64,000 nucleotides of DNA from an uncultured Gammaproteobacteria bacterium (GTDB taxonomy: Bacteria > Patescibacteriota > Patescibacteriia > Magasanikbacterales > GCA-002688135). Where the stretch lies: positions 24,076 through 88,075 of the forward strand of contig CAZHVT010000005.1 in the NCBI GenBank assembly GCA_964536205.1, given 5' to 3'. How positions within the stretch are numbered: position 1 is the stretch's first letter; the number at the start of each line of letters is the position of its first letter. A model generated the notes under the pieces. That model did not search any database and was not told where the DNA came from. It was given only the letters and a program-made list of their open reading frames with translations. The translations under genes and the position numbers were made by a program. Shown piece after piece: positions 898 through 40,175 of this stretch.

Positions 898-2244
898 TTA
901 ATGTGCCTCATCCTTACACAAAAAACTCTTTGTTGCAATAGTCATGCCATAAGCCGCAAATAGCGTTATAAATGGTGTGACTGGAATGCGTAATCGAGGC
1001 GTGTCTTTATTCATGGATGAAATGAGTGCGAAAAATAACATCATCAAAATTATAGTGATTGCGATTCCACGAGATACTTTGTCTTTGTGTGTTGTGAGAT
1101 ATTTCCAGAAACCGAATGCCATGAGTAAGAACATTGCCGCCCACCAGATGCGTCCACCGAAATATAGGAATGGATAGAAGATTTGAGATGGCGGATCGAG
1201 TTTGTAAAATAGCGTGCTGTATGATCGTGAGGCGGAGCTTTCTATAAAAAATACTCCCATCTTTTGTACGATCACTCGAGCGAGTAATGTATAATCTTGT
1301 GAAATGATTTCGCGAGCTTTTGTGTTGAGATAATCTTGATATTGAAATTCGAAAATGCCGTATTGGGCGAAAGATTGTTCTGGGGTGAGGTGCGGGAGTC
1401 CTGTGTAGTTTAAATCTTGTACGGCTTGCGTGACGAGACCTGCATATTTTTCTTCTCCTGGTTCATAGTATTCGAGGAATCGCGGTGCAGCGGTGAGGTA
1501 TGCGTTTGCGCCGGCTGTGGAGATTGGATTAAATGTTTTGTAATGATAGTAATTTCGAGCTGACCATGGCGTAATGACTGCGATTACCAACACCACATAC
1601 ACCACCGCATGCTTGATTGCGAATTTCTTTTTCCAGAATACAAAGAGGATCAGGAGGGCGAAAAGTGGGATTACTGGGATGAGGAATGGTCGGGTCATTA
1701 TTGCGAGACCAGCGGAAATAGCGGAGAGAGCTTTGAGTTTTGAGTTTTGAGTTTTGAGATATTTGATTAACCAGTAGATGCTTAAGGTGAAGAAAAGCAT
1801 GAATACAGTTTCTGACATGAGTTGTGATGCGTTGGTTAGTCGTCGTGCTTCAAGCATGAAAAGAATTGTTCCGATGAGCGCGATATTTTCTGAAATGAGT
1901 GATGAGCCGATTCTGTAAACTATCACCAAAACATATGCGGCGATGATGTTTTGGATTGCAACAACAAAAAATAGTGACCCTGAAATTCCGTAGAGCGCTG
2001 CGACGAATAATGGGTAGAGTGGTGTGCGGATAGTTTGCGGATCTAGATCTGGATGCATGTAAAATCCGCCGGTGTCGAGAAGGTTTTTTCCGAGATCAAA
2101 ATAAAGTTCTGCATCTGATGTCCACAAAAAACCGCCTGACGCGATAGTCATTGTAAGGTACAAGACAACAGACTGGACGATGAGCGCAAAAAAGAATATA
2201 CTTTTCTCACGTTTTGATTGAAATAGAGAATTCAATACTTTCAT
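898..2244 (-). CDS. Polytopic GT-C-fold membrane glycosyltransferase (PMT/ArnT-like). The preferred start is the ATG at 2244; the ORF track extends it to a TTG at 2268.
   Basis: Translation shows about 11 predicted TM helices and a loop-rich periplasmic region. The overall architecture is that of GT39/GT83 family proteins. It is embedded among glycosyltransferase genes. Confidence 0.55.
   Translation of the reverse strand: MKVLNSLFQSKREKSIFFFALIVQSVVLYLTMTIASGGFLWTSDAELYFDLGKNLLDTGGFYMHPDLDPQTIRTPLYPLFVAALYGISGSLFFVVAIQNIIAAYVLVIVYRIGSSLISENIALIGTILFMLEARRLTNASQLMSETVFMLFFTLSIYWLIKYLKTQNSKLKALSAISAGLAIMTRPFLIPVIPLFALLILFVFWKKKFAIKHAVVYVVLVIAVITPWSARNYYHYKTFNPISTAGANAYLTAAPRFLEYYEPGEEKYAGLVTQAVQDLNYTGLPHLTPEQSFAQYGIFEFQYQDYLNTKAREIISQDYTLLARVIVQKMGVFFIESSASRSYSTLFYKLDPPSQIFYPFLYFGGRIWWAAMFLLMAFGFWKYLTTHKDKVSRGIAITIILMMLFFALISSMNKDTPRLRIPVTPFITLFAAYGMTIATKSFLCKDEAH
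1735..1760. repeat. (GAGTTTT)3.5 heptanucleotide tandem repeat inside the GT-C gene. It encodes KLKTQNSKL.
   Basis: Direct reading of gagttttgagttttgagttttgag. Confidence 0.8.
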
Positions 2245-2853
2245 ATGTACGATAGACAATACTCCCAAAAAGTCTTACGAGATCGTAAAAACGATATCGT
2301 TATGAATTATGATGCAGTTGATGCTGTGCTTTTTGATTTGTTGGATGTTACTGATGAGCATTATGTGTTGGAGGTTGGGTGCGATGTGGGGTATACACAA
2401 CGAAAATTTGAATCTCAGGTCAAACGTTGTGTCGGGATTGATGTGAATGAATTTGCGATCGCGCAAAATCCATGTGCTGATGCTGTTGTGATGAGTGGTG
2501 TTTCAACTACGTTTCCAAATGCGTGTTTTGATCGTGTCTATTCCTCGCACACTATTGAGCACATCCATGAAATTAGAGAACATTTTGAAGAGGTTGCACG
2601 CATTCTCAAACCCGGAGGAAAATATGTTGCTGTGTATCCGTGGGAATTATTTCGTGGGATGGCTGCAGCACGTGCGGCGATTACCTTATACGGCAATCCT
2701 TTTAAATCCCGCGACATGCATGTACACAAATTATCTCCTAAGAAATTGGACAAAATTACAAAAGATCTGCCAATAACGCAGACCTATCATACACTGAAAT
2801 TCATGAACACACCACAGTGGGTTTCCGTGTGGGAGAAGGACAACCATCAATGA
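2245..2853 (+). CDS. Class I SAM-dependent methyltransferase (Methyltransf_11-like).
   Basis: Motif VLEVGCDVGY followed by an acidic D, and an HTIEHIHE motif. Its ATG abuts the ATG of the divergent GT-C gene; the two share the hexamer CATATG. Confidence 0.65.
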   Translation: MYDRQYSQKVLRDRKNDIVMNYDAVDAVLFDLLDVTDEHYVLEVGCDVGYTQRKFESQVKRCVGIDVNEFAIAQNPCADAVVMSGVSTTFPNACFDRVYSSHTIEHIHEIREHFEEVARILKPGGKYVAVYPWELFRGMAAARAAITLYGNPFKSRDMHVHKLSPKKLDKITKDLPITQTYHTLKFMNTPQWVSVWEKDNHQ

Positions 2854-3669: not shown

Positions 3670-4401
3670 CTACTCTACAGAATTTTCAATTTGTTTTTTA
3701 CGGATATCGGTAAACCGAATGCGCAGGGCGAAAGGGACGTAACGCATGCGTTTCCATGTGTTTATTTTTGAGACGCCTTCTGTGCGGGATTTCCACCATG
3801 TTGGGATTTCGATGTATTTGTATCCGAGACGCAGCGGCTTGAGTGTTGTTTCCATGGCGATCTCGTGCATTTCTCCCCACCAATCTACTTCGTTGATTAA
3901 TTTTGCATTGAATAGTTTGAAGCCGTATGTGAGATCTCGGACTGGTGTCCAAAAGACGATTCTGAAAATTGTTTGGAAGCCGCGATTTAATACATAGGTA
4001 AGATTATCATACCCTTTTACTCCCCCGCCTGGCATCCAGCGAGTTGGTAGAACTAAATCATATCCGTCTGCTGCAGCTTGTACCATTTTAGGAACGGTAT
4101 CTAAATCCATTTCGTCATCTGCATCAATCACTAGTACATGCGTCCCAGTTACGTGCGGGAATACTTGTTTGTATGCATGTCCTAATCCTGGTACAACTTT
4201 TTGAATCATTACTTTTATCTCGGCATATTCACTCGCCAATTTCTGACACATATTCAAACATTCCACAGATGACTGCGGCGCGACAATGAAAAATATTTCA
4301 TGAATGTTTTCTCCGATTCGGTCGTATAAGCCCTCGACTACTGTCTTGAGAGATTCTACTTCTGACCAGATGGGGATGATGATTGAAACCGAAGGTTTCA
4401 T
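3670..4401 (-). CDS. GT2 glycosyltransferase, DPM1/ArnC-like polyprenyl-phosphate sugar synthase type.
   Basis: VSIIIPIWSE...VIDADDEMD motifs (DxD). Confidence 0.75.
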   Translation of the reverse strand: MKPSVSIIIPIWSEVESLKTVVEGLYDRIGENIHEIFFIVAPQSSVECLNMCQKLASEYAEIKVMIQKVVPGLGHAYKQVFPHVTGTHVLVIDADDEMDLDTVPKMVQAAADGYDLVLPTRWMPGGGVKGYDNLTYVLNRGFQTIFRIVFWTPVRDLTYGFKLFNAKLINEVDWWGEMHEIAMETTLKPLRLGYKYIEIPTWWKSRTEGVSKINTWKRMRYVPFALRIRFTDIRKKQIENSVE

Positions 4402-11436: not shown

Positions 11437-11970
11437 TTAGCCAGCCATCACGCGGGTCGACCAGTGGACGATCGCGAGTGCGAATTCCTCGGCGGTGTAA
11501 TCCGCTTTGGTGCCACCTTCCAACTCGAGGAAGTTGCGTGCCATGGCCATCGGAGTCATTGGTTCTTCACCCTCGACCGCGCATGCACGGATCATGACCA
11601 ACTCGTAGTCCGCATCGTCGGTTGTGGCGTCTTTACCCAGGGATTCGCGTGAGTAAATGATCAGGTCGACTTGCTTTGCCGCTGCTTTCGTTGCTCCGAC
11701 CGCAACAGTTTGCAAGTGAGAAGCCTCTCCCTCTCTGCGTGGCTCGAAGGTTGTCTTCAGCTCCGTTTCTGACGTTACTTCGACGACCCCGCAGAAGAAG
11801 CCTTCCGGGAGCACTGAGATCAAGAACGATCCTGGCTTATCGCCCGGCCTGGCCTTGTCAAAATTCTCGTTAATCATCAAAAGTAGATGATTCATGTCTC
11901 CTTCGTAGTGCGAGAATTTGGAGTCGGCCGTTTGACGGCGTACAAAATCGTTGAGTGCAATTTCAATCAC
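11437..11970 (-). CDS. Hypothetical cytoplasmic protein with a GTG start. It is a high-GC compositional outlier.
   Basis: 177-aa ORF with markedly higher GC and GC3 (gcc atc acg cgg gtc gac...) than all neighbouring genes. A strong SD sits 6 nt before the GTG, unlike the neighbouring genes. Twin terminators follow. No recognisable family. Confidence 0.45.
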   Translation of the reverse strand: MIEIALNDFVRRQTADSKFSHYEGDMNHLLLMINENFDKARPGDKPGSFLISVLPEGFFCGVVEVTSETELKTTFEPRREGEASHLQTVAVGATKAAAKQVDLIIYSRESLGKDATTDDADYELVMIRACAVEGEEPMTPMAMARNFLELEGGTKADYTAEEFALAIVHWSTRVMAG

Positions 11971-12131: not shown

Positions 12132-12908
12132 CTAAATAAAGCGTTTTCCTTGTTTTTTGAGCCATTTGTTGTCGTTGCGGGTTGGGAGTGAGAAGTAGGA
12201 TTGTTCGCGATTTGGGTATTTTGGATAGGGTCCTTTTGTCTGTACAAGATCCAGAGCATCCCACATCATTTTGGGGAAATCTTTGTAAACTTGTGTGTAC
12301 GCATCTGCAACTGTTTCAAAATTTTGTTTGTAGATATGCTGGAGGATCATGGTTCCCTTGTCGATTTCTTTGTCCATGAAATGAATGGTCACACCTACTT
12401 TTTGCTTGCCTTCAAGTAGTGTCCAGAAAACTGGCATCAATCCTCTGTATGATGGCAGTGGTCCGGCGTGTTTATTTATGACGCCGATTTTCGGCGCGTC
12501 CAGAATTTTCTTTTTGAAAATGTAACCGCATGTTGAGAGGATGATGTCTGCGTCGAGCTCTTTTATGCGATTAATGACTTGTTGCTTATTTGGATTTGAG
12601 TGTTTTTCAAATGCTGCGGAATGTCGATGTGCGAGATCTTTGTATGAATGTGGGCCGTCTGTGAAATATCTTTTGAATGTTGCGACGGTTGTGATCCAAA
12701 TTAATTTTAGAACTGTGAAAATTCCAAATGTTTTGAGATAGTAGAGCGGAACTTTCAGCCCCTTGTGTTTTCCAAGCAGATTTGGAAACACAAAAATTCC
12801 AACTACGTGATAGTTTTCTTCTGAATCTAAAAATTTCTTCCATGCGGGGAATAGAAATGCGTAGTCTTGTTCAGTGAAGATGACGACTTTTAATTTATCC
12901 TTGGGCAT
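12132..12908 (-). CDS. Formyltransferase-domain protein; likely a sugar N-formyltransferase.
   Basis: Formyl_trans_N signature ...INKHAGPLPSYRGLMP... with conserved Asn, His and Asp. It is the ArnA-N, Fmt or WbtJ-like catalytic domain in a glycan cluster. Confidence 0.6.
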   Translation of the reverse strand: MPKDKLKVVIFTEQDYAFLFPAWKKFLDSEENYHVVGIFVFPNLLGKHKGLKVPLYYLKTFGIFTVLKLIWITTVATFKRYFTDGPHSYKDLAHRHSAAFEKHSNPNKQQVINRIKELDADIILSTCGYIFKKKILDAPKIGVINKHAGPLPSYRGLMPVFWTLLEGKQKVGVTIHFMDKEIDKGTMILQHIYKQNFETVADAYTQVYKDFPKMMWDALDLVQTKGPYPKYPNREQSYFSLPTRNDNKWLKKQGKRFI

Positions 12909-13854
12909 ACTTTTTTTCTTTGAGAATATCTTCGGCTACCTCGCGGACAGTTGTCAATTTTGCGTTTGCAGACATTGTTTTGATCACTGATTCGAATAAG
13001 TACATTTTCTTTTCGAGCGAGTCTGACATGCGCTCAAAAACTGCGAGTTCATCTTTGTATTCTTTTACAATTTCAGGATCGAAATCTTCTTCGTAATTTG
13101 CAATATCTGCAGGATGCATGATGTAGTAGAATCCGTCTTTTTTCATTACTTGTTTTAACGCCCAGAGATGGAATTTGAGAGGCCACATAAACGCCATAGT
13201 GTGCCAGACAGGAAGTCGTAGAGGCGTGACTGTTGGAACGGGCAACATAAGCAATCCCTCTGAATTTGGTTTGTGTAATTTTTCTGGTCGAATTAAGTAT
13301 GGTTTTCTTGTCCCATATAACAATACCCTCTTGTCATTTCGTGACATGAAGTTTGCATCGAATTTCTGATCTGTGCGTGAATTGAATTTCAGTTTTGCAA
13401 TTGCAGCTAACATTATTGGCGATGGAAATGCTGAAGTGTCATAGATGTATCCTAGATCAAGCAATGTTTGAATGGATGTTGGACTCATGCTCCATGTTGG
13501 AGAAATGTATCCTTTTGGTTCTTCTCCGATCACTTGGGTGATTCGCTCATGAGTTTTCATTATTTCATCTTTTTGTTTTTGCGGTTCTGTTGCGCCGAGA
13601 TTTCCATGATGCGTCCATGAATGATTTCCGATTTCATGTCCTGCTTCATGCCATTTTTTCACTTGATCGGCAACTTTTTCATTTTCCAAATCTCTCCCAA
13701 TCACATAAATAGAAAATTTGAAATCGTATTTTTCTGACATCCTAAAGAACCGATCTGCAACTTTAAAAAAAGTCGGATCTAAATTTCTCTTCCGATCAAT
13801 TGAAAGCGGAAAGTATAGTGAGTCAAAATTTACATTGAGTGCAACCTTCTTCAT
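12895..13854 (-). CDS. Polysaccharide deacetylase (CE4/NodB homology domain). The preferred ATG at 13854 overlaps the upstream TGA stop as ATGA.
   Basis: NodB motifs, including GHEIGNHSWTHH. Confidence 0.7.
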   Translation of the reverse strand: MKKVALNVNFDSLYFPLSIDRKRNLDPTFFKVADRFFRMSEKYDFKFSIYVIGRDLENEKVADQVKKWHEAGHEIGNHSWTHHGNLGATEPQKQKDEIMKTHERITQVIGEEPKGYISPTWSMSPTSIQTLLDLGYIYDTSAFPSPIMLAAIAKLKFNSRTDQKFDANFMSRNDKRVLLYGTRKPYLIRPEKLHKPNSEGLLMLPVPTVTPLRLPVWHTMAFMWPLKFHLWALKQVMKKDGFYYIMHPADIANYEEDFDPEIVKEYKDELAVFERMSDSLEKKMYLFESVIKTMSANAKLTTVREVAEDILKEKKYAQG

Positions 13855-16355
13855 ATAATTTTGTAGATGTCTACTTGTCCTTCGCTGTACACGCGCTCGA
13901 TGTTCTCCCATTCATCTGGATTGAAATTTCCCAGGAATTTTTCGTGTGGGCCGTTGTAGATGTAATTCGCTTGGTACGGAAGTTTTACAGAACCAGAAAG
14001 TTTTATCGCATCGTAACTATCTCGAATTTGCTGTGCTTCTTTTTCTGGAAGTGTGCGCTCGCTTCCGGAGTTTGTGTAATCTTTTCCGTAGCGCGTTCGC
14101 AATGTATCACAAAACAATGTGTAGATATTGTCGAGATCAATGGCACGGACTGGATTTTCAAATTCGTCGTATGAACCTGTGAGTGTGTTGTCTGTCATGT
14201 CTTGTGATACTCGGAAAAGGTGTCGTGCGTAGTTGTATCGCTCAATTACTTCATCATGACCTGCAACTGTGTAACATGCAAGTGGAACATATACATTCGC
14301 ATGAGTGAAAAACGGTGTATAAGTGCTTGTGCGTGTTGATGGTGAAATAATCACACTATCCTTATCTACATTCTCATTCATCCATGCAAATGAATTTTGT
14401 ATGTCTTGTGGGATGACGTAGCGAGCGGCGTTTGTGCGGCGCTCGTTGAGATGTACGTGAAACGCACTTCCCAGCAACAATATAATAACCGCCAGCATGG
14501 TAAGTCGTTCCGCTTTTTTCCAATCTCGATTCGGTTTAATTTTGTGATAGATGAAATATGCAACTATTCCAATCACCCACACCAACATATAGACATTCAC
14601 GCGTGATCCCCAATGGTCCGGTTGTGGGTTAAATCCAAGCAGCAACTGAAGATTTAGTACGATACCAATTGGAAGTAATGCTCCGGCCAGAAAAATAACT
14701 TTGTCTTTTTGTTTTATTGTCCACGCAGCTAGAGCGATTATAATCAGTGTTGCGATAATTGTTTTTGCTGAGGCTGGGTCGAACTCTCTTCCAAAAACTA
14801 ATCCCACTCGTTCTGACATCGAGGCATAATATGATTGTGCTTGCAGTCCGTACGTTTTGAGAAGATATGGGATTGCAACTATTAATCCTATGACTCCCAC
14901 GAGAAATGTCTCTTTTGCTCGCTTTCTGAAAAATAGAAATGTAGTGATGAGTATTGTTGTGAATGCTGCAAAAACTGCGTAGTAGAAATATACGTAGAAT
15001 AATGCACCGAGTAATAACCCTGCTTTCGTGATGTCTTTTTGCTTCATGTCTACGACAACGCGGTACAAAAAGTACATGAAGGCAAACCACAGAATTATTC
15101 CTGGCGAAGGAATGAAGCTTCTCGTGAATGCTGGGTCAAATGCTGTTGCGACGAATTTGAATGGATGGAAAAGTGATGGATTTGAAATTGCAGCCCGAAT
15201 TGCAATTAGTATGTTTGGAAATATTGTGGTGACAAGCGCAAGCAGTACAGCAGGGGTTTGTCGTTTATCACATATGCGGTATGTCAGTTTGTAGAGCATG
15301 AGAAATGCAAGGGGTGGAAAGATGATAGAATACAACAGAAATAGGTTTGTTGGGTCTGTGATACCGAAAATCAGTCCTGGCAATCCAAGAATGAATGCAA
15401 GTGCGATATTGCCCCATGCGGTTTTGTTGTTTTTGTATTCAGCGAGATATGCGTCCCCGTCTGCGAGATGGCCGTCGAAAACTTCGCGCATGCGTGTGCC
15501 ATAGGCTGCGACGTCATCTAGAACTGGTACATTAAGAGAGTATGGATGATATCCTTCGATTCCTGCTTGGGCTTGCCATTGCGGGATGAGGAAGTGTGGA
15601 AGTGCGTAGAGCGCAAGGATTGCAAGTGCTACGATCCATGCTAATTTATCTTTTTTTTTAGACTTTAATCGCCATCCAAACACTCGTGAAAGTAATTTTA
15701 CGTGACGAGGAATTTCTTTTTTGTAGTTGAGTTTTGATGATCCGAATTCTCTATTTCCGATTGGTGTGGGGATTTCCACATAGCGTGATCCATCAAAATG
15801 CATTTTAAAAAACAATTCTGTTGGGGTGTCGAAACTTGTTGTTTCGAGTTTTACTCGTTTTGCAGCTTCTGCATCCATGATTCTGAAAATAGAACTGATC
15901 CCATGTACGCGGGTTCCAGCTGCAAGTGAGTATGCGAGATTTGCAGCTTTACTCACTCCTACGCGCCATTTCGGAATATCATCTGCATAGCCCGCTAATC
16001 CATGTGAACCAATCACCGCCTCCACATCACCCTGCTCATAGCGCTCCTTCAAATCACGGATGTATTTAGGATGGAATGTCATGTCAGAATCTAACAGCAC
16101 AATTTGATCTCCTTGCGCGTGTGCTATTCCTGTTCGTATAGCAGCACCTAATCCACCATTTTTCGCATGCTGAACCACACGAAGATTTTCTACATCACTT
16201 GCATATAGTCGTGCTTGGGTTTCATCTGTACTTCCATCATCAATCACCACAACCTCATAATCAAGATCCAGAGCTTTGAGCTCTGGTTCTAAAATCGTCT
16301 TTAAACCTGGGATATTGTCTTCTTCGTTGTAACAAGGAATGACAATACTGATCAT
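13851..16355 (-). CDS. Fusion protein: an N-terminal GT2 (ArnC/GtrB/DPM1-like polyprenyl-P-sugar synthase) and a C-terminal GT-C-like polytopic membrane domain. The preferred start is MISIVIPCYNEE at 16355, which overlaps the methyltransferase stop as ATGA.
   Basis: ISIVIPCYNEE...VVIDDGSTDET...LDSDM, then more than 12 TM helices. The C-terminal soluble domain is paralogous to that of 6538..8385. Confidence 0.65.
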   Translation of the reverse strand: MISIVIPCYNEEDNIPGLKTILEPELKALDLDYEVVVIDDGSTDETQARLYASDVENLRVVQHAKNGGLGAAIRTGIAHAQGDQIVLLDSDMTFHPKYIRDLKERYEQGDVEAVIGSHGLAGYADDIPKWRVGVSKAANLAYSLAAGTRVHGISSIFRIMDAEAAKRVKLETTSFDTPTELFFKMHFDGSRYVEIPTPIGNREFGSSKLNYKKEIPRHVKLLSRVFGWRLKSKKKDKLAWIVALAILALYALPHFLIPQWQAQAGIEGYHPYSLNVPVLDDVAAYGTRMREVFDGHLADGDAYLAEYKNNKTAWGNIALAFILGLPGLIFGITDPTNLFLLYSIIFPPLAFLMLYKLTYRICDKRQTPAVLLALVTTIFPNILIAIRAAISNPSLFHPFKFVATAFDPAFTRSFIPSPGIILWFAFMYFLYRVVVDMKQKDITKAGLLLGALFYVYFYYAVFAAFTTILITTFLFFRKRAKETFLVGVIGLIVAIPYLLKTYGLQAQSYYASMSERVGLVFGREFDPASAKTIIATLIIIALAAWTIKQKDKVIFLAGALLPIGIVLNLQLLLGFNPQPDHWGSRVNVYMLVWVIGIVAYFIYHKIKPNRDWKKAERLTMLAVIILLLGSAFHVHLNERRTNAARYVIPQDIQNSFAWMNENVDKDSVIISPSTRTSTYTPFFTHANVYVPLACYTVAGHDEVIERYNYARHLFRVSQDMTDNTLTGSYDEFENPVRAIDLDNIYTLFCDTLRTRYGKDYTNSGSERTLPEKEAQQIRDSYDAIKLSGSVKLPYQANYIYNGPHEKFLGNFNPDEWENIERVYSEGQVDIYKII

Positions 16356-17029
16356 ACGTTCTTTGCTTTTACAATGAGACATGTTGTCCCATGCGATCGT
16401 TTAAATTCATCGATTGCAAAACCTGCTTTTTCTAAATCTGCGATGAGTGTTTTTTTATTGTAATCGCGCAAATGCGCTTCCTCCCAAACTTTTCCTTTTG
16501 TCTTCAACCACAACCACCAAATTACTTGAAATACTACATGATGTTCTTCGACAACAAATACAATGAAACTTCCGCCGGGCTTGAGGACGCGTTTTACCTC
16601 AGAGAGTGTTTTTTCTAAATCCACGACATGCTCGATGACATCCAACATGGTTACAGCATCAAAAGAGTTTTCTTCAAATGGAAGTGCTTCTGCTGGAGCA
16701 TGCGCAAACGTAAATTGTGGACGTTCTCGTTTCGCGTATGCAATGTGATGTTCCGCAACATCTGCGCCAGCATAGTGAATGTCTGGACGAGCTTTTGCGT
16801 AATGGCCCAAGGAAAATCCTGATGAACATCCTACATCCAAAACTTTTCCTGCTTCTGGCACATCTGCAAGCATGCGATTCACATGCTTGAAACGCATATC
16901 GTAATACAATTTTTGTACTCGATTATTTGCATATGAATCATCCCAGTATGTAGCTGGAACTTGTTCGTAGATTTCTTCGAGTTGTTCTTTTGTGTATGTG
17001 TGTTCGTGTTCTCCCATATTTTTACGCAA
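16352..17029 (-). CDS. Class I SAM-dependent methyltransferase.
   Basis: VLDVGCSSGF..., DAVTMLDVIEHV. Confidence 0.65.
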   Translation of the reverse strand: MRKNMGEHEHTYTKEQLEEIYEQVPATYWDDSYANNRVQKLYYDMRFKHVNRMLADVPEAGKVLDVGCSSGFSLGHYAKARPDIHYAGADVAEHHIAYAKRERPQFTFAHAPAEALPFEENSFDAVTMLDVIEHVVDLEKTLSEVKRVLKPGGSFIVFVVEEHHVVFQVIWWLWLKTKGKVWEEAHLRDYNKKTLIADLEKAGFAIDEFKRSHGTTCLIVKAKNV

Positions 17030-17735
17030 GGGTTTTTTCTTTAGCGACCATCAATTGTTCTTTTTCAAATCTGATAAGATCTGCATGTCTATCACCTTTC
17101 TTATAGACGCCGCGGCGAAGATATTGTGTTGGGCCAACCCATGCATCTTTTTGGATGAACATTCCTGGCTCGAGAACTGCATTACATCCTACTTTTACAT
17201 CGTCCCCTAGAATTGCTCCGAATTTTGTCATTCCTGTCGTCGTGTTTCCTGCAGGAACTTCTTTTGCATCCAATCTGAAGTTTGCCAAAATTACACCTGC
17301 TCCAATATTTGATCGCGCACCCATGATACAATCACCGATAAAATTAAAGTGCGGCGCACATGCGTAATCAAGCATGATGGTGTTTTTTGCTTCCGTACAA
17401 TGTCCGATGATTGATCGCTCCCCGAGAATTGTAAGACCTCGAATGTATGCACCTGTTCCCACAATTGCTCGTGGTCCGATGTAACATGGCCCTTCAATGT
17501 ATGCAGTTGGTTCAATCTTCGCGTCTTTCGCGATGATTACATCTCCTTTGATAATTGCTTGATCAGAAATGTTTCCTTGGTGCCATTGATCTTTTGGGGT
17601 TTCAGAAAAAAGTTTTTCTAAGTATTTTTCCGAGTTGTTAAAAGCTTCCCACACAAATTCTGTTCCTTCGAATAGTTCTTTGTGCATGTAGTTTGAGAGG
17701 TCGAAGTATTGTGATGCTGCGAATTCGTTTGTCAT
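17022..17735 (-). CDS. Left-handed beta-helix (hexapeptide repeat) acyltransferase; likely a sugar N-acetyl/acyltransferase.
   Basis: Multiple [LIV]GxxxxI hexapeptide turns: IGPRAIVGTGAYIRG, IGDCIMGARSNIGAGVIL. Confidence 0.6.
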   Translation of the reverse strand: MTNEFAASQYFDLSNYMHKELFEGTEFVWEAFNNSEKYLEKLFSETPKDQWHQGNISDQAIIKGDVIIAKDAKIEPTAYIEGPCYIGPRAIVGTGAYIRGLTILGERSIIGHCTEAKNTIMLDYACAPHFNFIGDCIMGARSNIGAGVILANFRLDAKEVPAGNTTTGMTKFGAILGDDVKVGCNAVLEPGMFIQKDAWVGPTQYLRRGVYKKGDRHADLIRFEKEQLMVAKEKTLA

Positions 17736-18450: not shown

Positions 18451-19482
18451 ATGTCATTTATTTCCCGGTGGAAAGCTGCGCTGAAAACAGCTGAAGGAAA
18501 ATTTTTTGTTTTTTTGATTTCTGGATTTGTTGTTTTCTCGATCCTGATTCTTGCCGGAGCTTTTCTTGTTGATCCACATGAGGATTTCGGAACTGGGTTG
18601 ATTGATCCGCTTGTTTTGACGAATCGATCTGAAAAACTCGAGATGATTGAAGCGCTTGATGAGAATCCGGAGATTCTTATATTTGGATCTTCTCGGACAT
18701 TTACTATTGATCCTGATCATATTTTTGAGTTGACTGGCAGGCGTGCATTTAATGCGTCTGTTTCATATGGACGCAGTGAGGATCATAATGCAATCATTCA
18801 TTTTTTGACGCAGGAGCGTGCAGTGCATCCTGAAACACTCGTGATTGGATTTTCTGCTGGAGCGTTTAATGATGATCCGATTGAAACGCAATTACTGAAT
18901 AATAAGTATTTGAAATCATATCTAGCAGAACCACCTACTCCATTGTGGAAACGTGCGCCGCGTATTTTGAAGAGTAAATTGAATGGGCAGTATGTTGGGG
19001 ATATATTTCGGTCGTTGTTTTTCCATGCGTCAGGATTTCCGGCGGATCGTGTAAGCTTTTTGCCTAATGGTATGCAGGATACTCACGATAGTCCGTATGA
19101 TGCAATTAAAATTGATGAGAATTATTACCGAGCGCTCGCATTGTTTGAAAATATGTCTGAACCAAATTGGGATCGGCTTGAAGCGTTCCGTTCGCTAGTA
19201 AGATATTCTATCGATAACAATTTTGAAGTGAACGTGGTATTATTGCCTATGCCGTCTGTGACGCGCGCGCGATTGATTGAGGATACTGATTTGATTGCAA
19301 TTGAAGAACGCTTAAAAGTTTTGTTTACTGATGAGATGCCAGATAATGTGACGTTTTATGATTTTTCTGAAGTAGATAGTTTTGGTGGATCTGAAGAAGG
19401 ATTCAATGATCCAACACATCCGAATATTGCGAATACCAGATTAATAACCGAAGCGATATTTGGTGATCGTCCCAGCCCTTAG
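18451..19482 (+). CDS. Membrane-anchored AlgJ/AlgX/DltD-like (SGNH-like) partner protein of the MBOAT O-acyltransferase.
   Basis: N-terminal TM helix, then a periplasmic domain with a GSSR block (ILIFGSSRTF). It lies immediately upstream of the MBOAT gene, as in the algI-algJ and dltB-dltD pairs. The call is by context and weak motif only. Confidence 0.4.
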   Translation: MSFISRWKAALKTAEGKFFVFLISGFVVFSILILAGAFLVDPHEDFGTGLIDPLVLTNRSEKLEMIEALDENPEILIFGSSRTFTIDPDHIFELTGRRAFNASVSYGRSEDHNAIIHFLTQERAVHPETLVIGFSAGAFNDDPIETQLLNNKYLKSYLAEPPTPLWKRAPRILKSKLNGQYVGDIFRSLFFHASGFPADRVSFLPNGMQDTHDSPYDAIKIDENYYRALALFENMSEPNWDRLEAFRSLVRYSIDNNFEVNVVLLPMPSVTRARLIEDTDLIAIEERLKVLFTDEMPDNVTFYDFSEVDSFGGSEEGFNDPTHPNIANTRLITEAIFGDRPSP

Positions 19483-19485
19483 ACT

Positions 19486-19552
19486 GTCATCCCGGCGCAG
19501 GCCGGGATCCATGCTGATGAGCAAGATGGATCCCGGCCTGCGCCGGGATGAT
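19486..19552. repeat. GC-rich perfect palindrome: 27-bp arms GTCATCCCGGCGCAGGCCGGGATCCAT / ATGGATCCCGGCCTGCGCCGGGATGAT around a 13-nt loop. Each arm is itself a hairpin.
   Basis: Direct reading. A half copy with 4 mismatches lies at 23857..23888. Confidence 0.85.
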
Positions 19553-19628
19553 ACTTCGATCAGCTGCGCAGCAGTCCAAAAAGCGAAGCGCATACCAGAT
19601 ACCAGATACTAGATACCAAATACCATTT

Positions 19629-21026
19629 ATGATTTTCAATTCCTACATCTTCCTCTTCATCTTCTTCCCCATTGCATGGCTTGGTTTTTGGATGCTGCGT
19701 GGAAAACAACCTCGCTACATTTGGCTGACTCTTGCGAGTTACATTTTCTATGGATACTGGGATTGGCGGTTTACTGGCTTGCTTCTTGTTTCGACAATTA
19801 TAGATTTCTATGTCGCACGGCAGATTCCGAAACACGAAGGGAAGAAAAAGAAGCTTGTTTTGTTGATTTCGTTGGCTGCGAATCTGGGGATGCTCGGATT
19901 CTTTAAATACTTTAATTTTTCTGTTGATTCGTTGCAATCGTTGTTTACGTTATTTCAACTCTCCCCTACGCTTCCGAATCTCGATATTGTGCTGCCGGTT
20001 GGAATTTCGTTTTTCACCTTCCAGACGATGAGTTACACGATTGATGTGTATCGCGGACGCTTGCAACCGACGAAGAATTTTATGGAGTTTGCGTGTTATG
20101 TTTCATTGTTCCCGCAACTTGTTGCTGGGCCGATTGTGCGATTTTCTGATATTGATAGTGATTTGGATAACATTGATCAGCATGGTCGTACGAAATCGTT
20201 TCATCGCGGTGGTTCGATGTTTCTTGTTGGTTTGGCTAAGAAGGTTGTTATTGCCGATACGATTGCACATTTTATTGACCCATTATTTGCCAACACAATT
20301 GAGCTCACAAGTTTGACTGCGTGGGTTGCGATTATTGGATACACACTGCAATTGTATTTTGATTTTTCTGGATATTCGGATATGGCGCTCGGATTGGGAT
20401 TATTGTTTGGTTTGAAATTCCCACAGAATTTTCATTCACCATATAAGGCTGTTGATATCCAGGACTTTTGGCGGCGATGGCATATGTCACTTTCTGCTTG
20501 GTTGAAGGATTATTTATACATTCCTTTGGGAGGTTCACGGAAAGGGACTGTTCGTACGTTTGTGAATATGATGTTGACGATGTTGTTGGGTGGTTTATGG
20601 CATGGTGCTTCATGGAATTTTGTTGTGTGGGGTGGAATTCATGGGACGCTTTTAGGTGTGACGAAACTCATCAAACCATGGTATGACAAACTAAATTATT
20701 GGTTCCGTCGATTTCTCACATTATTCCTTGTGATGATTTCATGGGTGTTTTTCCGCAATATCACATTTGCAGATTCCACGAACATGCTCCGCGCGATGTT
20801 CTCATTTGATAATTGGACAATGCCAACTGCATGGAATCTTGAATCTCAAATTCTATTATTCGGCATGCTTTTTGTTGGAGCACTCATTGCACTCTTCGCT
20901 CCAAACTCATACGAAATAAAATACTCAACTAAAAAAAGCGTCGCAATCCTGCTCGCTTTCTTGTTTGTCGTGAGTTTAATTCTCATGAACTACACACAAC
21001 AAGTCTTCCTCTACTACCAATTTTAA
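19629..21026 (+). CDS. MBOAT-family membrane-bound O-acyltransferase (AlgI/DltB/PatA-like). The start is set at the first ATG downstream of the palindrome.
   Basis: MBOAT hallmarks FTFQTMSYTIDVYRG, WRRWHMSLSAWLKDYLYIPLGG and the conserved His in LWHGASWNF. Confidence 0.75.
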   Translation: MIFNSYIFLFIFFPIAWLGFWMLRGKQPRYIWLTLASYIFYGYWDWRFTGLLLVSTIIDFYVARQIPKHEGKKKKLVLLISLAANLGMLGFFKYFNFSVDSLQSLFTLFQLSPTLPNLDIVLPVGISFFTFQTMSYTIDVYRGRLQPTKNFMEFACYVSLFPQLVAGPIVRFSDIDSDLDNIDQHGRTKSFHRGGSMFLVGLAKKVVIADTIAHFIDPLFANTIELTSLTAWVAIIGYTLQLYFDFSGYSDMALGLGLLFGLKFPQNFHSPYKAVDIQDFWRRWHMSLSAWLKDYLYIPLGGSRKGTVRTFVNMMLTMLLGGLWHGASWNFVVWGGIHGTLLGVTKLIKPWYDKLNYWFRRFLTLFLVMISWVFFRNITFADSTNMLRAMFSFDNWTMPTAWNLESQILLFGMLFVGALIALFAPNSYEIKYSTKKSVAILLAFLFVVSLILMNYTQQVFLYYQF

Positions 21027-21718
21027 AATCGTCCTTTGAGTTTTGCTAGGTCTCTAAGGATTCCATACGCATGAGACGATTGCACGCGGGAATCGGGATC
21101 GTCTTGCCATGTGATGGGTACTTCTTTTATTGAGTAGTTATTTTTTTGTGCGAATTTTAAGAGCTCGACATCGAAGATCCAGCCATCTGTTTGGAGGGCT
21201 TGGAAAATGTGTTTTGTTTTTTTGTGGAATGCTTTGAATCCGCATTGTGTATCTTGGAATGGTAGATTGAGGAATTTCTGGATTACTTTGTTAAATAAAC
21301 GTCCTTGTAGTTCTCGGCGTTTTGGTTGGCGTTTGGTGAGGTTTGATTCTGGAAGTGCGCGTGAGCCGATTAAAACATCATGAGATTCTGCGTGTGGCTT
21401 GAGTGTTTCGATGTCGCGTGGATGCGTTGATAAATCTGCATCGATAAAAACAACCCACTCACCGTTTGCAGCTTCTACACCTGTTTTTACGGCCGCTCCT
21501 TTTCCTTTGTTTGTTGTGTGTTGAATGAGTTGTACGCGATTGTCTGGATATGCTCGCGCGTATGTTGCTGTTCCATCTGCACTTCCATCGTCCACTACAA
21601 TTACTTCGCACGTGTCGAGATTTTCATTTGCGTATTTTAAAATTTCTTCAATCGCATGTCGGATTGATTTTTCTTCGTTGTATGCGGGGATGATGAATGA
21701 AATGTTTTTGATAAGCGT
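21023..21718 (-). CDS. GT2 glycosyltransferase (ArnC/DPM1-like) with no canonical start codon. It is in frame with, and immediately follows, the TAA stop of the 21719..23851 gene. The ORF track starts it at an internal GTG (21595).
   Basis: Upstream of the GTG the frame continues as TLIKNISFIIPAYNEEKSIRHAIEEILKYANENLDTCEVIVVDDGSADGT. This is the typical GT2 N-terminus, and it contains no ATG, GTG or TTG. Confidence 0.55.
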   Translation of the reverse strand, partial: TLIKNISFIIPAYNEEKSIRHAIEEILKYANENLDTCEVIVVDDGSADGTATYARAYPDNRVQLIQHTTNKGKGAAVKTGVEAANGEWVVFIDADLSTHPRDIETLKPHAESHDVLIGSRALPESNLTKRQPKRRELQGRLFNKVIQKFLNLPFQDTQCGFKAFHKKTKHIFQALQTDGWIFDVELLKFAQKNNYSIKEVPITWQDDPDSRVQSSHAYGILRDLAKLKGRF

Positions 21719-21740
21719 TTAGCGTTTAGCGTTTAGCGTA
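21714..21740. repeat. (AGCGTTT)3 plus a partial copy, overlapping the stop codon and last codons (…LNAKR*) of the 710-aa gene.
   Basis: Direct reading. This is the same heptamer as at 4404 and 5446. Confidence 0.85.
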
Positions 21741-23851
21741 GAGTAGCGAGCTAAAAAGATTGCAGCGAAAATGAATAATATTGGCTGGATGGGGTAGCGG
21801 AATCGTGCATAACTTCCCAATCCTGATGCAGCGGCAAAATATATCACAATCACAGCCAAAAGCAGTATTAATTTTCGTGTGTGTTTTTCTCGAAGCGCCA
21901 TGAGTAATCCGAATATCATTGCGAGAGTCAATAATGCATAGAGTGCTTTGGCGATGAGAAATACTACTCCTCCAGATTGTATGTAGTTTGAAATAAATGC
22001 TTTAAATGCCCCTGGCTCTCCCAACCATGTTTTGTCGAATGCTCCGATTTCAAAATGTGGTTCAATTGATTTGGCGATCGTGAACCATCCATCTGAAGCG
22101 AAGAATGGAATAAGTGTTGTTGCGCCGATTCCGATATATGCGAGTGGATCTTTTGCGAGTGATTTGATGGCAACACCCATCATTGCATTTGCCGCTTCTC
22201 CTCCTGAAACATTTTGTAACTCTTCATATACTTCTACCGGAGGTTTTTGGAATTTCTTTTGTGTGTATGCTTCGACGTATTTTCCGACACTTCCGCGAAC
22301 AGCAAATGATGAGCCGTATGTGAAGTCTCCGAGTGTCACGTGATTTCTATAAAACCATGGTGAAAGTAGGATGAGTGGCATCATGACAGCGATTGCCATT
22401 TTGGTGAATCGTTGTTTTTTTATGCTCAATAACCCGATGAGTGGAAGTAGGAAAATTAATGGGTATGAGATTTGTCTTAGGTACGTTGCGATGGCAAGTA
22501 AGATTGCATATCCAATGAGTACGCTCAATCTTTTGGATTCCAGATAATCGACAAAACAATATATTGCGCCAAACAAGAAAACTGTAAACAGAGATTCACC
22601 AATAAGTTGTGTTGGCCAATACCACATGTTTGGCTCAAGTGCTGCGAGGCCTGCAGCGATGAATGCGATGTTTTCATTGAAGTATCTTTTTGTGAAAAAG
22701 TAGATCATTAAGATGAGTGCAAGTGATGCAATGATTTGGATGATGACTCCTGGCCAATATACGCCGTGCGCTCCGCCGGTGAGCATGAGAAATACTGGCA
22801 TGCCGGGGGTTCTGAAATCATTCGCAAGAAATGGTGCTTCTTTTGATAGTGAAAATTCTCCGTGGTTTTTAAGGTTTTCCGCGATTGTTACAAATTCCAC
22901 TGCATCGCCATTTGGACCGTACACGAAACTTGATTGTCCTTGTGTGAAAAGAAGAGCTGCGAATAAAACGATGCGGATGATGATGGCGGCCATCATGATT
23001 GTGCGCAACATTTTTGGAAGTCGTTTCCATGAAGCGATTATGAGAGCTTTAAATTTTGCTGGATGCCATGCATGCACAAGATTGTACCAGAAGAATCTCA
23101 TATGATAACGAAATGGGAGTACATTTTCACTGCGATATTTTACCGGAAGCCACAATGCAAGAGCGAACACTTTTAGTGCTCGAAGTGTATTCTTCCATAA
23201 TCCTCTTAAAAAGTCGCTCCATTTTGTTTTGTGAGCGTTGTCGATGAACTTTTCTCTTGCTAGCTTCAAGTAATGCGTATCTTTCTTTTTGCATGATGCC
23301 AAATCTGGCCAATATGAAAATAACTTTCCTTTCAATTCTTGTTTTTCAATTCCTTCTGGATAGACGAGTGATTCATGTACGCGTGATCCTGGTTTCCAGT
23401 GGATGCCAGCTTTTCGATTTATGAGACGATCCGTGAATTCTGGATAGAAATATGCGCGATCTATTTTCTTCCCTTCTACGATTGCGATACGTTTGAATTT
23501 TCCGACAATATTTTTGTCGTTCTTCTCTACTACTTGAGATATTTCTTCCTGCAATGTTTCGTCGAGATATTCATCTGAATCTATATAAAATACCCAATCA
23601 TGCTTTGCGAGGTTAAATGACTTCACGCGCATCTGTGTAAAATTTTGAATTGCAGCGTTTGCGTGTGGTCCTTCCACTTGAGGATAGACGCGTGCTCCAA
23701 ACTCCTTTGCGATTTCGACTGTTTTGTCCGTTGAGTTTCCATCAAGCACTACAATGTCGTCACAAAAAGAGACAGAGGCAAGGCACTGTCTGATCGTATC
23801 TTCATTATTGAGTGTGAGAATCGTGACGGAGCACGGAATTTTATTATTCAT
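21719..23851 (-). CDS. Fusion of an N-terminal GT2 (polyprenyl-P-sugar synthase-like) with a GT-C/PMT/ArnT-like polytopic membrane domain.
   Basis: SVTILTLNNEDTI...VVLDGNSTDKT...IDSDEYLDE, then about 12 TM helices with FTKRYFNENIAFIAAGLAALEPNMWYW-type GT-C loops. Confidence 0.65.
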   Translation of the reverse strand: MNNKIPCSVTILTLNNEDTIRQCLASVSFCDDIVVLDGNSTDKTVEIAKEFGARVYPQVEGPHANAAIQNFTQMRVKSFNLAKHDWVFYIDSDEYLDETLQEEISQVVEKNDKNIVGKFKRIAIVEGKKIDRAYFYPEFTDRLINRKAGIHWKPGSRVHESLVYPEGIEKQELKGKLFSYWPDLASCKKKDTHYLKLAREKFIDNAHKTKWSDFLRGLWKNTLRALKVFALALWLPVKYRSENVLPFRYHMRFFWYNLVHAWHPAKFKALIIASWKRLPKMLRTIMMAAIIIRIVLFAALLFTQGQSSFVYGPNGDAVEFVTIAENLKNHGEFSLSKEAPFLANDFRTPGMPVFLMLTGGAHGVYWPGVIIQIIASLALILMIYFFTKRYFNENIAFIAAGLAALEPNMWYWPTQLIGESLFTVFLFGAIYCFVDYLESKRLSVLIGYAILLAIATYLRQISYPLIFLLPLIGLLSIKKQRFTKMAIAVMMPLILLSPWFYRNHVTLGDFTYGSSFAVRGSVGKYVEAYTQKKFQKPPVEVYEELQNVSGGEAANAMMGVAIKSLAKDPLAYIGIGATTLIPFFASDGWFTIAKSIEPHFEIGAFDKTWLGEPGAFKAFISNYIQSGGVVFLIAKALYALLTLAMIFGLLMALREKHTRKLILLLAVIVIYFAAASGLGSYARFRYPIQPILFIFAAIFLARYSTLNAKR

Positions 23852-23890: not shown

Positions 23891-25357
23891 TCATTTACGA
23901 TCTACCACGTTGAAGTAGAAAATTGAGAAAATCGCTTTAACGCCGTCCCACCAACCGATTTTTTTACCTTCTTCATATGTTCGGCCTTGATATGAAATTC
24001 CGACTTCGTACATGCGAACGCGTCGGCGTGCGAGTCGTGCGGTAACTTCTGGCTCAAATCCGAATCTGTCAGATTTTAGATGTGGGAGAATTTCTTTGAT
24101 GATTGGAGTTTTGAAAACTTTGTAACATGTTTCCATGTCCGTGAGGTTGATGTTGGTAAACATGTTGGACATCCATGTGAGGAATTTGTTTCCGATTGAG
24201 TGCCAGTAATACAATACACGGTGCGCATCAGATCCTACAAAGCGCGAACCATATACGACGTCTGCGTTTCCATCTCGGATGGGATCAAGTAATCGATTGT
24301 ATTCGTCGGGATTGTATTCTAAGTCTGCATCTTGAATGATGCATACATCGCCGGTTGCTTTTGCAAATCCAGCTCGGAGTGCTGCACCTTTCCCTGCATT
24401 CTCTTTCTGATATACCACCGTGATTCCTTCGTTTTCTAATTCTGGCAAGATTTCACGTGTGCCATCTGATGAACAATCATCAACAATAATAATCTCCTTT
24501 TCCTCATGAATCGGAGAAGCTTTAACACGAGATACAATCTCACGAATCGTCTTTTTTTCGTTATAACACGGGATGATGATTGAAACTTTCATAAGTTGCC
24601 ATGGTAGCTGATTTTCTTGATTTGGGCAATATTGACTCAATGAGAGCAATGAAACTCCTATGGGTAGCGACGTGCGTGTGAGGAGATGTTGTTCCGATGA
24701 GAATAGTTTGTAGAGTGCGTTGTTTATGAATCCCTCGCCCGTCATATTCACCTCATCTTTTGTATCGAGCGATGGCATGATGCGTTTTGCGAGTTTTACT
24801 GTTGCGATTGGTGGGAATAGAAATGAATTGTAGTATGATATTTTTTTGATGTCGCCTAGTGGCTGCACAACATCACGCAACTCATCTTTCGCGTAACGAC
24901 GATGATGGTGTAACCGTTCATCTTGTTTTGTCCATAGCGATTGTAATGCTGGAACTGTTATCATTGCGAATCCGTTCGGTTTGAGCACACGTTTGATTTC
25001 TTGCACTGCTTTTTGATCGCTTGTGCAATGTTCCAAAACATCCAATGCACACACCACATCAAATGAGTTTGATGCAAACGGAATTGACTCCCCTTCTCCT
25101 AAAACTACTGTTGATCCTGATTTCTTTTTTGCGTATCCAACCGCACTAAAATTTGGATCTATCCCATACACTTTTGCCCCCTTTTCTTCTAGTCTTCGCA
25201 ACATATACCCTGTCCCACACCCAACGTCTAAAATCTTTTTATCGATGAGTGGACCGATATGTTTTTCCAATAATCGAATCACAATATCCGCCTTGGCGCG
25301 AAACCACCAGTGCTTCTCCTCCTGCTCATTCATGATGTCGTAACATTGTGTATCCAT
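23891..25357 (-). CDS. Bifunctional protein: an N-terminal class I SAM methyltransferase fused to a C-terminal GT2 (ArnC/DPM1-like).
   Basis: [11 protein letters not shown]...[10 protein letters not shown], then [16 protein letters not shown]...[11 protein letters not shown]...QDADLEY. Confidence 0.65.
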
Positions 25358-37827: not shown

Positions 37828-37870
37828 GAGAGACAGTATAGCATATATTCCATTTTTTGATGTTAATGCC

Positions 37871-37899: not shown

Positions 37900-37955
37900 A
37901 CAGGCACGTAGCGTTCATTAAAACGTGAATTAGAACTTCAAAAAGGGGGTGCTTC

Positions 37956-40169: not shown

Positions 40170-40175
40170 CTTACG

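Follow-up and report, generated by a model that had tools for sequence, protein, structure and literature searches.

Gene locus of the two fusions

Two glycosyltransferase fusion genes are described here from a 64-kb stretch of contig CAZHVT010000005.1 (assembly GCA_964536205.1, positions 24,076 to 88,075), an uncultured bacterium with a GTDB lineage in the Patescibacteriota. This whole stretch is termed the window. It is a glycan island in which the minus strand is dominant and the GC content is ∼41%. Two minus-strand open reading frames (ORFs), termed protein A and protein B, had been pointed out in a first-pass annotation, and that observation was re-examined. The annotation held that each ORF joins an N-terminal glycosyltransferase family 2 (GT2) domain to a membrane domain of the glycosyltransferase C (GT-C) type, and the ORFs, Pfam matches and structure bear this out. 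It also described both GT2 domains as DPM1/ArnC/GtrB-like. This is supported for protein A, whose best matches are DPMS, ArnC and GtrB, but not for protein B, whose best matches are ThuS, GmaR and SunS. Positions of the features are listed in Table 1.

Protein A has 834 amino acids if translation starts at the second methionine (position 16355), or 843 if it starts at an upstream ATG (13851..16382). Judged from the sequence, position 16355 is the likelier start, because its ATG overlaps the stop codon of the upstream methyltransferase gene (ATGA) and because the N-termini of homologues agree, starting two or three residues ahead of the first beta-strand. The reading frame runs uninterrupted through the window. 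Full-length homologues with 33–83% identity are found in independent samples, and the architecture recurs in more than nine homologues that come from independent samples and assemblers. As both proteins have full-length homologues, an assembly artefact can be dismissed, and both fusions are real.

Table 1. Features of the two fusions, their operons and related genes in the window
Feature	Position	Strand	Basis
Protein A, predicted polyprenyl-phosphate-class GT2 + GT-C-fold fusion	13851..16355	-	ORF, Pfam, homologues, structure model
Protein A, predicted cytoplasmic GT2 catalytic domain and juxtamembrane helices (aa 1–236, 834-aa form)	15648..16355	-	PDB sequence matches
Protein A, A9 homopolymer (codons KKK) in linker between GT2 and first transmembrane helix	15651..15659	-	Sequence
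Protein A, predicted GT-C-fold membrane domain, ∼11 membrane-spanning helices	14433..15647	-	Model, Foldseek, helix hydrophobicity
Protein A, acidic pair D289-D290 (843-aa numbering) in first extracytoplasmic loop, candidate catalytic/metal-binding residues	15513..15518	-	Family conservation
Protein A, predicted C-terminal extracytoplasmic alpha/beta domain	13854..14432	-	High-confidence model, family conservation
S-adenosylmethionine (SAM) methyltransferase, stop overlaps start of A (ATGA)	16352..17029	-	Pfam, overlap
Hexapeptide acetyltransferase, like GlmU C-terminal domain	17022..17735	-	NCBIfam Arch_glmU 3.9e-47, acetyltransferase part
CE4 polysaccharide deacetylase-family gene, likely start overlaps stop of A (ATGA)	12895..13854	-	Pfam Polysacc_deac_1 4e-18
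Formyltransferase, 258 aa, size like sugar N-formyltransferases	12132..12908	-	Pfam Formyl_trans_N 1.6e-19
Protein B, SunS/ThuS-like GT2 + PMT_2-type GT-C, 710 aa	21719..23851	-	Pfam, homologues
Protein B, N-terminal GT2 module including juxtamembrane helices (aa 1–280)	23012..23851	-	PDB, NCBIfam
(ACGCTAA)x3 tandem heptamer across stop codon of B	21719..21739 (with partial copy 21713–21739)	-	Sequence
Stand-alone GT2, 231 aa, directly downstream of B	21023..21718	-	Pfam GT2 4e-35; NCBIfam AglJ 1e-21, PpgS 5e-19, ArnC 8e-18
Methyltransferase + GT2 fusion, upstream of B	23891..25357	-	Pfam; NCBIfam AglJ 7e-34, ArnC 7e-22
Protein C, unfused paralogue of the GT-C domain of A, 615 aa	6538..8385	-	BLASTP vs A
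Stand-alone GT2, 243 aa, between C and D	3670..4401	-	Pfam GT2 5e-16; NCBIfam AglJ 5e-13, dolichyl-phosphate hexose transferase 6e-12
Protein D, stand-alone PMT_2-type GT-C, 456 aa, paralogue of the membrane domain of B	898..2268	-	Pfam PMT_2 7e-9, PMT 1e-6

The GT2 domain of protein A

The Pfam model Glycos_transf_2 matches protein A at residues 12–175 (5e-27). When the first 236 residues are compared with PDB sequences, the best matches are Pyrococcus DPMS (5mlz, 5.6e-21), ArnC (2.9e-16) and GtrB (8.8e-16), and these three rank above every other GT2. The alignments also differ in length. That with DPMS spans residues 2–228 and continues through the juxtamembrane helices, and that with ArnC spans residues 2–215, whereas other GT2 proteins align over only ∼100 residues. 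Two motifs pair with those of the solved enzymes: DSD of protein A, which has the DXD form, with DAD of DPMS, and FGSSK with RGESK of DPMS and FGESK of ArnC. The best NCBIfam match is likewise ArnC (1.6e-17). A Foldseek search with a model of full-length protein A (pLDDT 79.8) has DPMS, ArnC and GtrB as its GT2 matches, and also finds STT3/PglB. Taken from sequence and model, the GT2 domain is thus assigned to the polyprenyl-phosphate class represented by DPMS, ArnC and GtrB.

Homologous proteins are denoted below by P-numbers and genome loci carrying homologues by L-numbers. The nearest relatives of this GT2 domain outside its own family are fusions of a CE4 domain with a GT2 domain (P0010–P0016). 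These proteins, which lie outside the window, are ∼570 amino acids long and consist of an XrtA-type CE4 deacetylase (TIGR03006, 2.7e-78) with a C-terminal PpgS/ArnC-like GT2. They represent an ArnD-ArnC-like pair in a single chain and form the nearest outgroup to the GT2 domain of protein A.

The membrane and outer domains of protein A

The GT2 domain passes straight into the first helix of the membrane domain, so that the order is GT2, a single transmembrane helix and an acidic loop. Residues 245–843 show nothing above threshold in Pfam or NCBIfam. A structure model of the membrane and outer region, built from 118 family sequences, has a pLDDT of 94.4 and a pTM of 0.93, and the top 26 Foldseek matches to it in the PDB are all GT-C enzymes. 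They include STT3 (7e-10), PglB (3e-8) and AftA (TM-score 0.52), and further DPY19, ALG9, AftB, AftD, ArnT and PimE. According to this model, the membrane part of protein A is a GT-C-fold enzyme, and its family is without a model in Pfam or NCBIfam. Weak PMT_2 matches occur in seven of 67 family members (best 7.8e-5) and are counted as a weak sequence link. The first-pass annotation had proposed that the GT-C assignment would stand or fall with a GT-C-type hidden Markov model (HMM) match or a conserved acidic loop motif. Protein A has no significant GT-C HMM match; the acidic loop motif and the fold are both present.

The acidic pair D289-D290 lies in the predicted first extracytoplasmic loop. 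The position of D289 is D or E in 115 of 118 family members and the following one is E or D in 71; D310 is kept in 115/118 and E315 in 111/118. Some 11 helices have the length and hydrophobicity needed to cross the membrane. In the topology suggested by the model, this odd number fits a cytoplasmic GT2 domain and an outer C-terminal domain. The latter comprises 190 amino acids and is conserved in the family. It contains a sequence, W-L-N-x-N-T-P-x-x-S-V-V, that lines up ahead of the WWDYG motif of STT3/AglB in an alignment that is not significant (E ∼1.3–1.5). WWDYG itself was not found there in protein A; SVIISPSTRTSTY stands at the position aligned before WWDYG in that non-significant alignment.

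A large GT-C family and its fusion partners

The membrane domain of protein A was used for an exhaustive profile search of protein clusters at 50% identity. It recovered 2,923 cluster representatives at E≤1e-3 and 730 at E≤1e-30, which are mostly ∼600 amino acids long. A word-indexed protein search with protein C had given five matches, and the exhaustive search shows this small count to be a limit of sensitivity. Current annotations call members of the family hypothetical or merely 'GT2'. Patescibacteria account for nearly all of the 33 genome loci that were recovered, with labels such as Parcubacteria, Uhrbacteria, Giovannonibacteria, Magasanikbacteria, Sungbacteria and Saccharibacteria metagenome-assembled genomes (MAGs), and one is from a Woesearchaeota archaeon. 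Members of the clusters that hold the window proteins are labelled as Parcubacteria group MAGs that stem from marine metagenomes, among them the mesopelagic sample of Tara Oceans station 039.

Protein C is a member of the family within the window. It has no Pfam or NCBIfam match, but BLASTP aligns its residues 49–608 with residues 288–842 of protein A at 25% identity (1e-38) over ∼560 amino acids. Paralogy of the C-terminal soluble domains of the 615- and 843-amino-acid proteins had been proposed earlier; the alignment confirms it and broadens it to the whole membrane and C-terminal region. An unfused C-type paralogue occurs together with the fusion in L001, L002 and L009.

Most listed members of the family are unfused. 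Fusion partners were scored among the 150 best representatives. In P0003, P0006, P0033 and P0135 the partner is a GT2 domain that aligns with that of protein A over its full or near-full length. P0109 and P0129 are other GT2 fusions in which the alignment is partial and the FGxSK motif is lacking, and P0046 has a B-type GT2 joined to an A-type GT-C. In a rough neighbour-joining tree most of the GT2 fusions fall in one clade, with P0135, P0109 and P0129 placed elsewhere. Other partners are a methyltransferase (P0048, P0052), a GT4 (P0054) and the GtrA_DPMS_TM domain (P0073, 8.8e-15; P0132, 4.6e-8). GtrA is the putative lipid-sugar flippase of three-component systems. The fusion of some members to GtrA links the family to lipid-linked donors, and is arguably the strongest sign that lipid-monophosphate sugars serve as donors for it.

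The operon of protein A

On the minus strand the gene order is Nudix, GlmU-C-like acetyltransferase, methyltransferase, protein A, CE4 deacetylase and formyltransferase. From the overlap of start and stop codons, protein A is predicted to be translationally coupled to the CE4 deacetylase, which is followed by the formyltransferase. The CE4 gene has TIGR03006 as its best NCBIfam match (1e-12) and a weak match to ArnD (5.5e-5). An assignment of this gene as an ArnD orthologue was considered and rejected, with HP0310 PgdA as the best PDB match and 5.5e-5 to the ArnD model. The CE4 domain of P0010 barely resembles the CE4 protein of the window (E 0.055). For the formyltransferase, PDB matches are Fmt, ArnA (1e-10) and VioF (6e-10).

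The CE4 and formyltransferase genes are kept beside the fusion in L001, L007 and L008, at 45–83% identity. L001 (45% identity) has the same gene order and in addition a B-like fusion, an MBOAT gene and a C-like paralogue. In L002 and L009 the C-like paralogue is kept, but the CE4 gene is not.

The operon recalls the Arn pathway in that a formyltransferase, a polyprenyl-phosphate GT2, a CE4 de-N-acylase and a GT-C transferase are found side by side. It differs in that the GT2 and the GT-C are fused in protein A. The Arn pathway adds Ara4N to lipid A, which is an unlikely acceptor in a bacterium of the candidate phyla radiation (CPR). By analogy with the Arn (Ara4N) and mycobacterial galactosamine routes, the sugar is probably an amino sugar that is N-acylated in the cytoplasm, loaded onto the lipid and there freed of its acyl group. 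This is suggested because the CE4 and formyltransferase genes are coupled to protein A, an acetyltransferase lies upstream and the CE4+GT2 fusions are nearest to its GT2 domain. It is the weakest part of the scheme presented below.

Proposed function of protein A

It seems fairly probable that protein A, in this member of the Parcubacteria (CPR), catalyses two steps of a glycosylation pathway that uses a lipid carrier. In a first step the cytoplasmic GT2, whose class is indicated by the matches above, would draw on a nucleotide sugar to load undecaprenyl (polyprenyl) phosphate with a sugar. A flippase would then carry the lipid-linked sugar to the outer face. There the GT-C domain, of which the model gives the fold, would pass the sugar to a surface glycan or protein acceptor. 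The two halves of the protein would thus serve the same pathway.

Several observations weigh against this proposal. One group concerns the GT2 domain and the flippase. At the C-terminus of solved polyprenyl-phosphate glycosyltransferases there are transmembrane helices belonging to the enzyme itself, two in GtrB and ArnC and four in DPMS. Protein A lacks them, although the first helix of its GT-C domain might take their place. No GtrA-like ORF was detected in a six-frame search of the 64-kb window, and among the ORFs scanned there was no Wzx-type Pfam match and no small flippase. A second group concerns the membrane domain. It has no significant match among PDB sequences, its best GT-C sequence-model score, to GT-C_AftD, is a non-significant 0.037, and the TM-scores of the Foldseek matches are modest (0.40–0.52). 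A membrane-only hhalign comparison of its family with the PMT_2 family of protein B gave a probability of 14% (E 0.002). The comparison of whole A and B alignments, with a probability of 80%, was rejected as evidence, being inflated by shared GT2 columns.

Genomic context adds further points of this kind. At the unfused genome loci a GT2 gene is directly adjacent in 9 of 27 and within 6 kb in 21 of 27, which speaks for a link of the GT-C family with lipid-linked sugar synthesis, but GT2 genes are common in glycan loci and these counts stand without a background rate. The best PDB match of the CE4 gene is a peptidoglycan deacetylase and not ArnD. The Arn-like proteins fall far below the equivalog cut-offs, with 63.5 against 529 bits for ArnC, 22.5 against 382 for ArnD and 64.8 against 777 for ArnA. 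An ArnB aminotransferase, or any aminotransferase, the ArnA dehydrogenase and ArnE/F were not found among the ORFs scanned across the window.

Alternative explanations

The two halves of protein A might belong to different pathways. The GT2 domain would then feed other GT-C proteins, protein C for example, the GT-C domain of protein A would use a different donor, and the fusion would merely co-localize or co-regulate the two. Pairing in the window is indeed ambiguous, with three or four GT2 domains that match polyprenyl-phosphate-class synthases (protein A, 21023, 23891 and, more weakly, 3670) and four GT-C proteins. The unfused C-type paralogue occurs along with the fusion in three loci, and A-type GT-C domains are also fused to a methyltransferase and a GT4, which are not donor synthases. 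On the other hand, the GtrA fusions and the frequent adjacency of GT2 genes are indicative of donor supply, and the pairing of consecutive steps is the usual cause of such fusions. A division between pathways is considered unlikely.

The membrane and C-terminal domains could instead form an oligosaccharyltransferase of the STT3/PglB/AglB type, which would transfer a glycan from a lipid diphosphate to protein, and the GT2 domain would not be the donor synthase. STT3 and PglB are the best Foldseek matches, the W-L-N-x-N-T-P-x-x-S-V-V sequence aligns with the stretch preceding WWDYG in STT3/AglB, and the four Wzy_C-family proteins and many GT4s of the island could assemble an oligosaccharide. However, WWDYG is absent at the aligned position and the sequence similarity is not significant (E ∼1.3). 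The top TM-score (0.52) belongs to AftA, a user of lipid-monophosphate donors, and the occurrence of GtrA and of a polyprenyl-phosphate-class GT2 as fusion partners suits monophosphate donors as well. An oligosaccharyltransferase is therefore thought to be very improbable.

The membrane domain might also be inert and serve as an anchor or activator of the GT2, comparable to the Lnt-like domain of Ppm1 in mycobacteria or to GacJ/WpsB for GacI/WpsA. Solved polyprenyl-phosphate glycosyltransferases depend on membrane helices or on a partner protein (PMC10821137, PMC3485146), and the usual C-terminal helices of GtrB/ArnC are missing from protein A. Yet the acidic-loop residues and many other outer-face residues are kept across the 118 family members, most of which are unfused and so anchor nothing, and the 190-amino-acid outer domain is likewise kept. 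A purely structural role appears, if anything, less probable still than that of an oligosaccharyltransferase.

That a missed stop codon or a frameshift in assembly or gene calling has joined two genes is scarcely credible: a relative (L008) does have the GT2 and GT-C as separate ORFs, through a single-base poly-A difference, but the frame is open in the window, the architecture is present in more than nine homologues at 33–83% identity, protein B has 11 full-length homologues of similar length, seven of them with a precomputed PMT_2 match, and the locus of protein B is identical across four assemblies.

Comparison with known systems

Glycosylation by way of a lipid carrier is normally shared out among three proteins, one acting as synthase, one as flippase and one as GT-C transferase. 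Protein A is solidly real and, mechanistically, is what is expected from fusing consecutive steps. As in the Gtr-type three-component systems (Shigella Gtr, Bacillus subtilis CsbB/YfhO/GtcA, Streptococcus pyogenes GacI/J/K/L), a GT2 synthase would act inside and a GT-C outside; the GT2 domain matches GtrB by sequence and fold, and relatives of the GT-C domain are fused to GtrA. The differences are that synthase and transferase form one polypeptide in protein A, that its GT-C family is without a Pfam or NCBIfam model, and that a GtrA/Wzx flippase was not found in the 64-kb window. Three- and four-component extracytoplasmic glycosylation of the same logic has been described (PMC8035078, PMC10821137, PMC11127046).

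STT3/PglB/AglB are the best structural matches of protein A (E 7e-10 to 2e-7, ∼700 aligned columns), and share with it a transmembrane part, a C-terminal outer domain and an acidic residue in the first outer loop. Protein A differs from them in having ∼11 helices instead of 13, in lacking WWDYG and in showing no significant sequence similarity. The fusion partners of its GT-C family also indicate monophosphate donors. Mycobacterial AftA, with the highest TM-score (0.52/0.52), uses a polyprenyl-monophosphate sugar donor. In the PpgS/Rv3779 route for galactosamine (GalN) in mycobacteria, a GT2 of the polyprenyl-phosphate class and a GT-C transferase are likewise combined with de-N-acetylation of the lipid-bound sugar. 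Sequence similarity was not detected, and the mycobacterial components are separate proteins.

In the literature searched, no natural GT2-GT-C fusion has been described; those found were fusions of the GacJ-GacI type and the engineered WpsB-WpsA. Public databases already record the GT2+PMT_2 domain pair for relatives of protein B. A natural fusion of synthase and transferase is of value as it would show directly which GT2 feeds which GT-C, something that sequence alone seldom tells. It also raises the question of how a single protein could bring a lipid-linked sugar across the membrane from its one active site to the other, and protein A, being compact, would lend itself to structural studies of this hand-over of the donor. 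In addition, a large and unmodelled GT-C family, of ∼2,900 clusters at 50% identity, has been exposed. For CPR bacteria, which are uncultured and of whose envelopes little is known, the family and its fusion partners offer a way to annotate the pathways of surface glycans.

The A9 run in the linker

The linker of protein A is encoded in part by a run of nine adenines (A9), the sole A or T run of nine or more in the 64 kb. At KKK sites in the ORFs of the window, AAG breaks 12 of 13, and AAA makes up 82% of lysine codons in six ORFs sampled from the window. The gain or loss of one adenine at this run would lead to a stop within two to three codons and to a product with the GT2 only. The linker of L007 retains A9. 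In L008 the run is A10 (∼5975–5985), which results in a 243-amino-acid GT2 ORF and a 618-amino-acid GT-C ORF with its own ATG. The split in L008 was considered as Rosetta-stone evidence for separate ancestral genes and was rejected, the difference being one nucleotide of poly-A (A10 vs A9).

The A9/A10 pattern could be due to chance, to a homopolymer sequencing error in L008 or to a functional slippage site. As a slippage site, A9 may yield a free GT2. A further suggestion, and quite an unlikely one, is that protein A is a flippase-free machine that makes, flips and transfers, with the sugar passing from the GT2 site to its own outer GT-C, and that it is tuned by programmed slippage at A9. If this were true, transcriptional or translational slippage would provide a free GT2 of 236–238 amino acids beside the full fusion, and slippage in relatives with A10 would rebuild the fusion from the split gene.

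Protein B and its neighbours

Protein B matches Glycos_transf_2 at residues 8–135 (3e-12) and PMT_2 at residues 365–499 (8.6e-12), the latter with 46 bits against a gathering cut-off of 26.1. It has 11 full-length homologues of 693–720 amino acids with 40–75% identity; precomputed matches show PMT_2 in seven and GT2 only in four. A G-D-A-x-E motif after the first transmembrane helix is invariant, with D316 and E319 in all 12 sequences.

The first 290 residues have their best PDB matches in ThuS (2.8e-11, residues 9–214), GmaR (1.2e-10) and SunS, and among NCBIfam models the SunS family likewise ranks first. DPMS, ArnC and GtrB, and polyprenyl-phosphate sugar synthases in general, are absent from the PDB matches at E≤0.01. 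The earlier view of protein B as a self-contained donor synthase and transferase finds no lipid-sugar synthase among these matches to build on, and is unsupported. Proteins A and B share only a marginal match between their GT2 domains (E 0.041). Their GT-C families are different: that of A is common to protein C, and the PMT_2 type of B is common to protein D (phmmer, membrane domain of B vs D, 1.6e-16).

The N-terminal module aligns with ThuS and GmaR, but SunS, ThuS and GmaR are soluble enzymes that act on peptides or flagellin, and the module of protein B is tethered to a GT-C. Including its juxtamembrane helices, it shares 37% identity (6e-53) with the N-terminal part of P0046. In L024 (521–3183) a separate B-type GT2 gene immediately precedes the gene of an A-type GT-C. 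The SunS-like module thus recurs in combination with GT-C domains from two families, and seems to be a portable partner of such enzymes although it does not belong to the known class of lipid-sugar synthases.

For the GT2 of protein B, the likelier role is to attach a second sugar or to act on some other acceptor in the cytoplasm. By analogy it may extend a lipid-linked sugar that is made by a neighbouring GT2. This is suggested because protein B is flanked by two GT2 genes with matches to polyprenyl-phosphate synthases, and because of a parallel with the lactococcal polysaccharide pellicle (PSP). In PSP synthesis, cytoplasmic glycosyltransferases elongate GlcNAc-P-C55 and a GT-C then carries out the transfer (PMC10821137). 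The adjacent 231-amino-acid GT2 is a better candidate for the donor synthase of protein B.

This adjacent GT2 (21023..21718) is in frame with protein B behind a single TAA, and there is no ATG, GTG or TTG ahead of its conserved N-terminus. Gene callers shorten it to 190 amino acids. The tandem heptamer (ACGCTAA) that crosses the stop codon of B shows no variation in copy number among four independent assemblies. Other glycosyltransferase genes listed in the first-pass annotation are confirmed by Pfam at 3670, 898 (with the end at 2268) and 23891. The GT2 at 21023 is also confirmed but has no canonical start, and the gene at 6538 is a paralogue of A that has no Pfam match.

The surrounding glycan island

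Between the two fusions, on the plus strand (18451–21026), there is an MBOAT acyltransferase together with a 343-amino-acid protein without a Pfam match. The pair is conserved in L001 (6093–8533), where the counterpart of the 343-amino-acid protein has a faint DUF1574 match. It looks like a glycan O-acylation pair of the DltB/DltD or AlgI/AlgJ type.

Four paralogous membrane proteins of the Wzy_C (O-antigen ligase/polymerase) family, 721–860 amino acids long, are encoded on the minus strand at 35245–46933. Three are in tandem (40205–46933) and the fourth (35245–37827) lies beyond a plus-strand gene; one of the four has TPR repeats. A 767-amino-acid protein (30548–32851, minus strand) consists of two complete tandem GT4 units (Glyco_transf_4 + Glycos_transf_1), and L001 also encodes a double GT4 like it.

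A 737-amino-acid protein with Dicty_CTDC repeats is found on the plus strand (37956–40169) in a GC-richer stretch (0.47). On the minus strand (46937–52342) a protein with Big_1/invasin domains adjoins one of 1231 amino acids that has no Pfam match. These three are probable surface proteins and possible targets of glycosylation.

An extracytoplasmic function (ECF)-type sigma factor (Sigma70_r2/r4) followed by a DUF5667 protein (52819–54656, minus strand) may represent a sigma/anti-sigma pair at the edge of the glycan island. Inside the island, also on the minus strand, are a DUF3228 protein (11437–11970) and an AsnB-type glutamine amidotransferase (25359–27206), which may amidate a uronic acid in the glycan.

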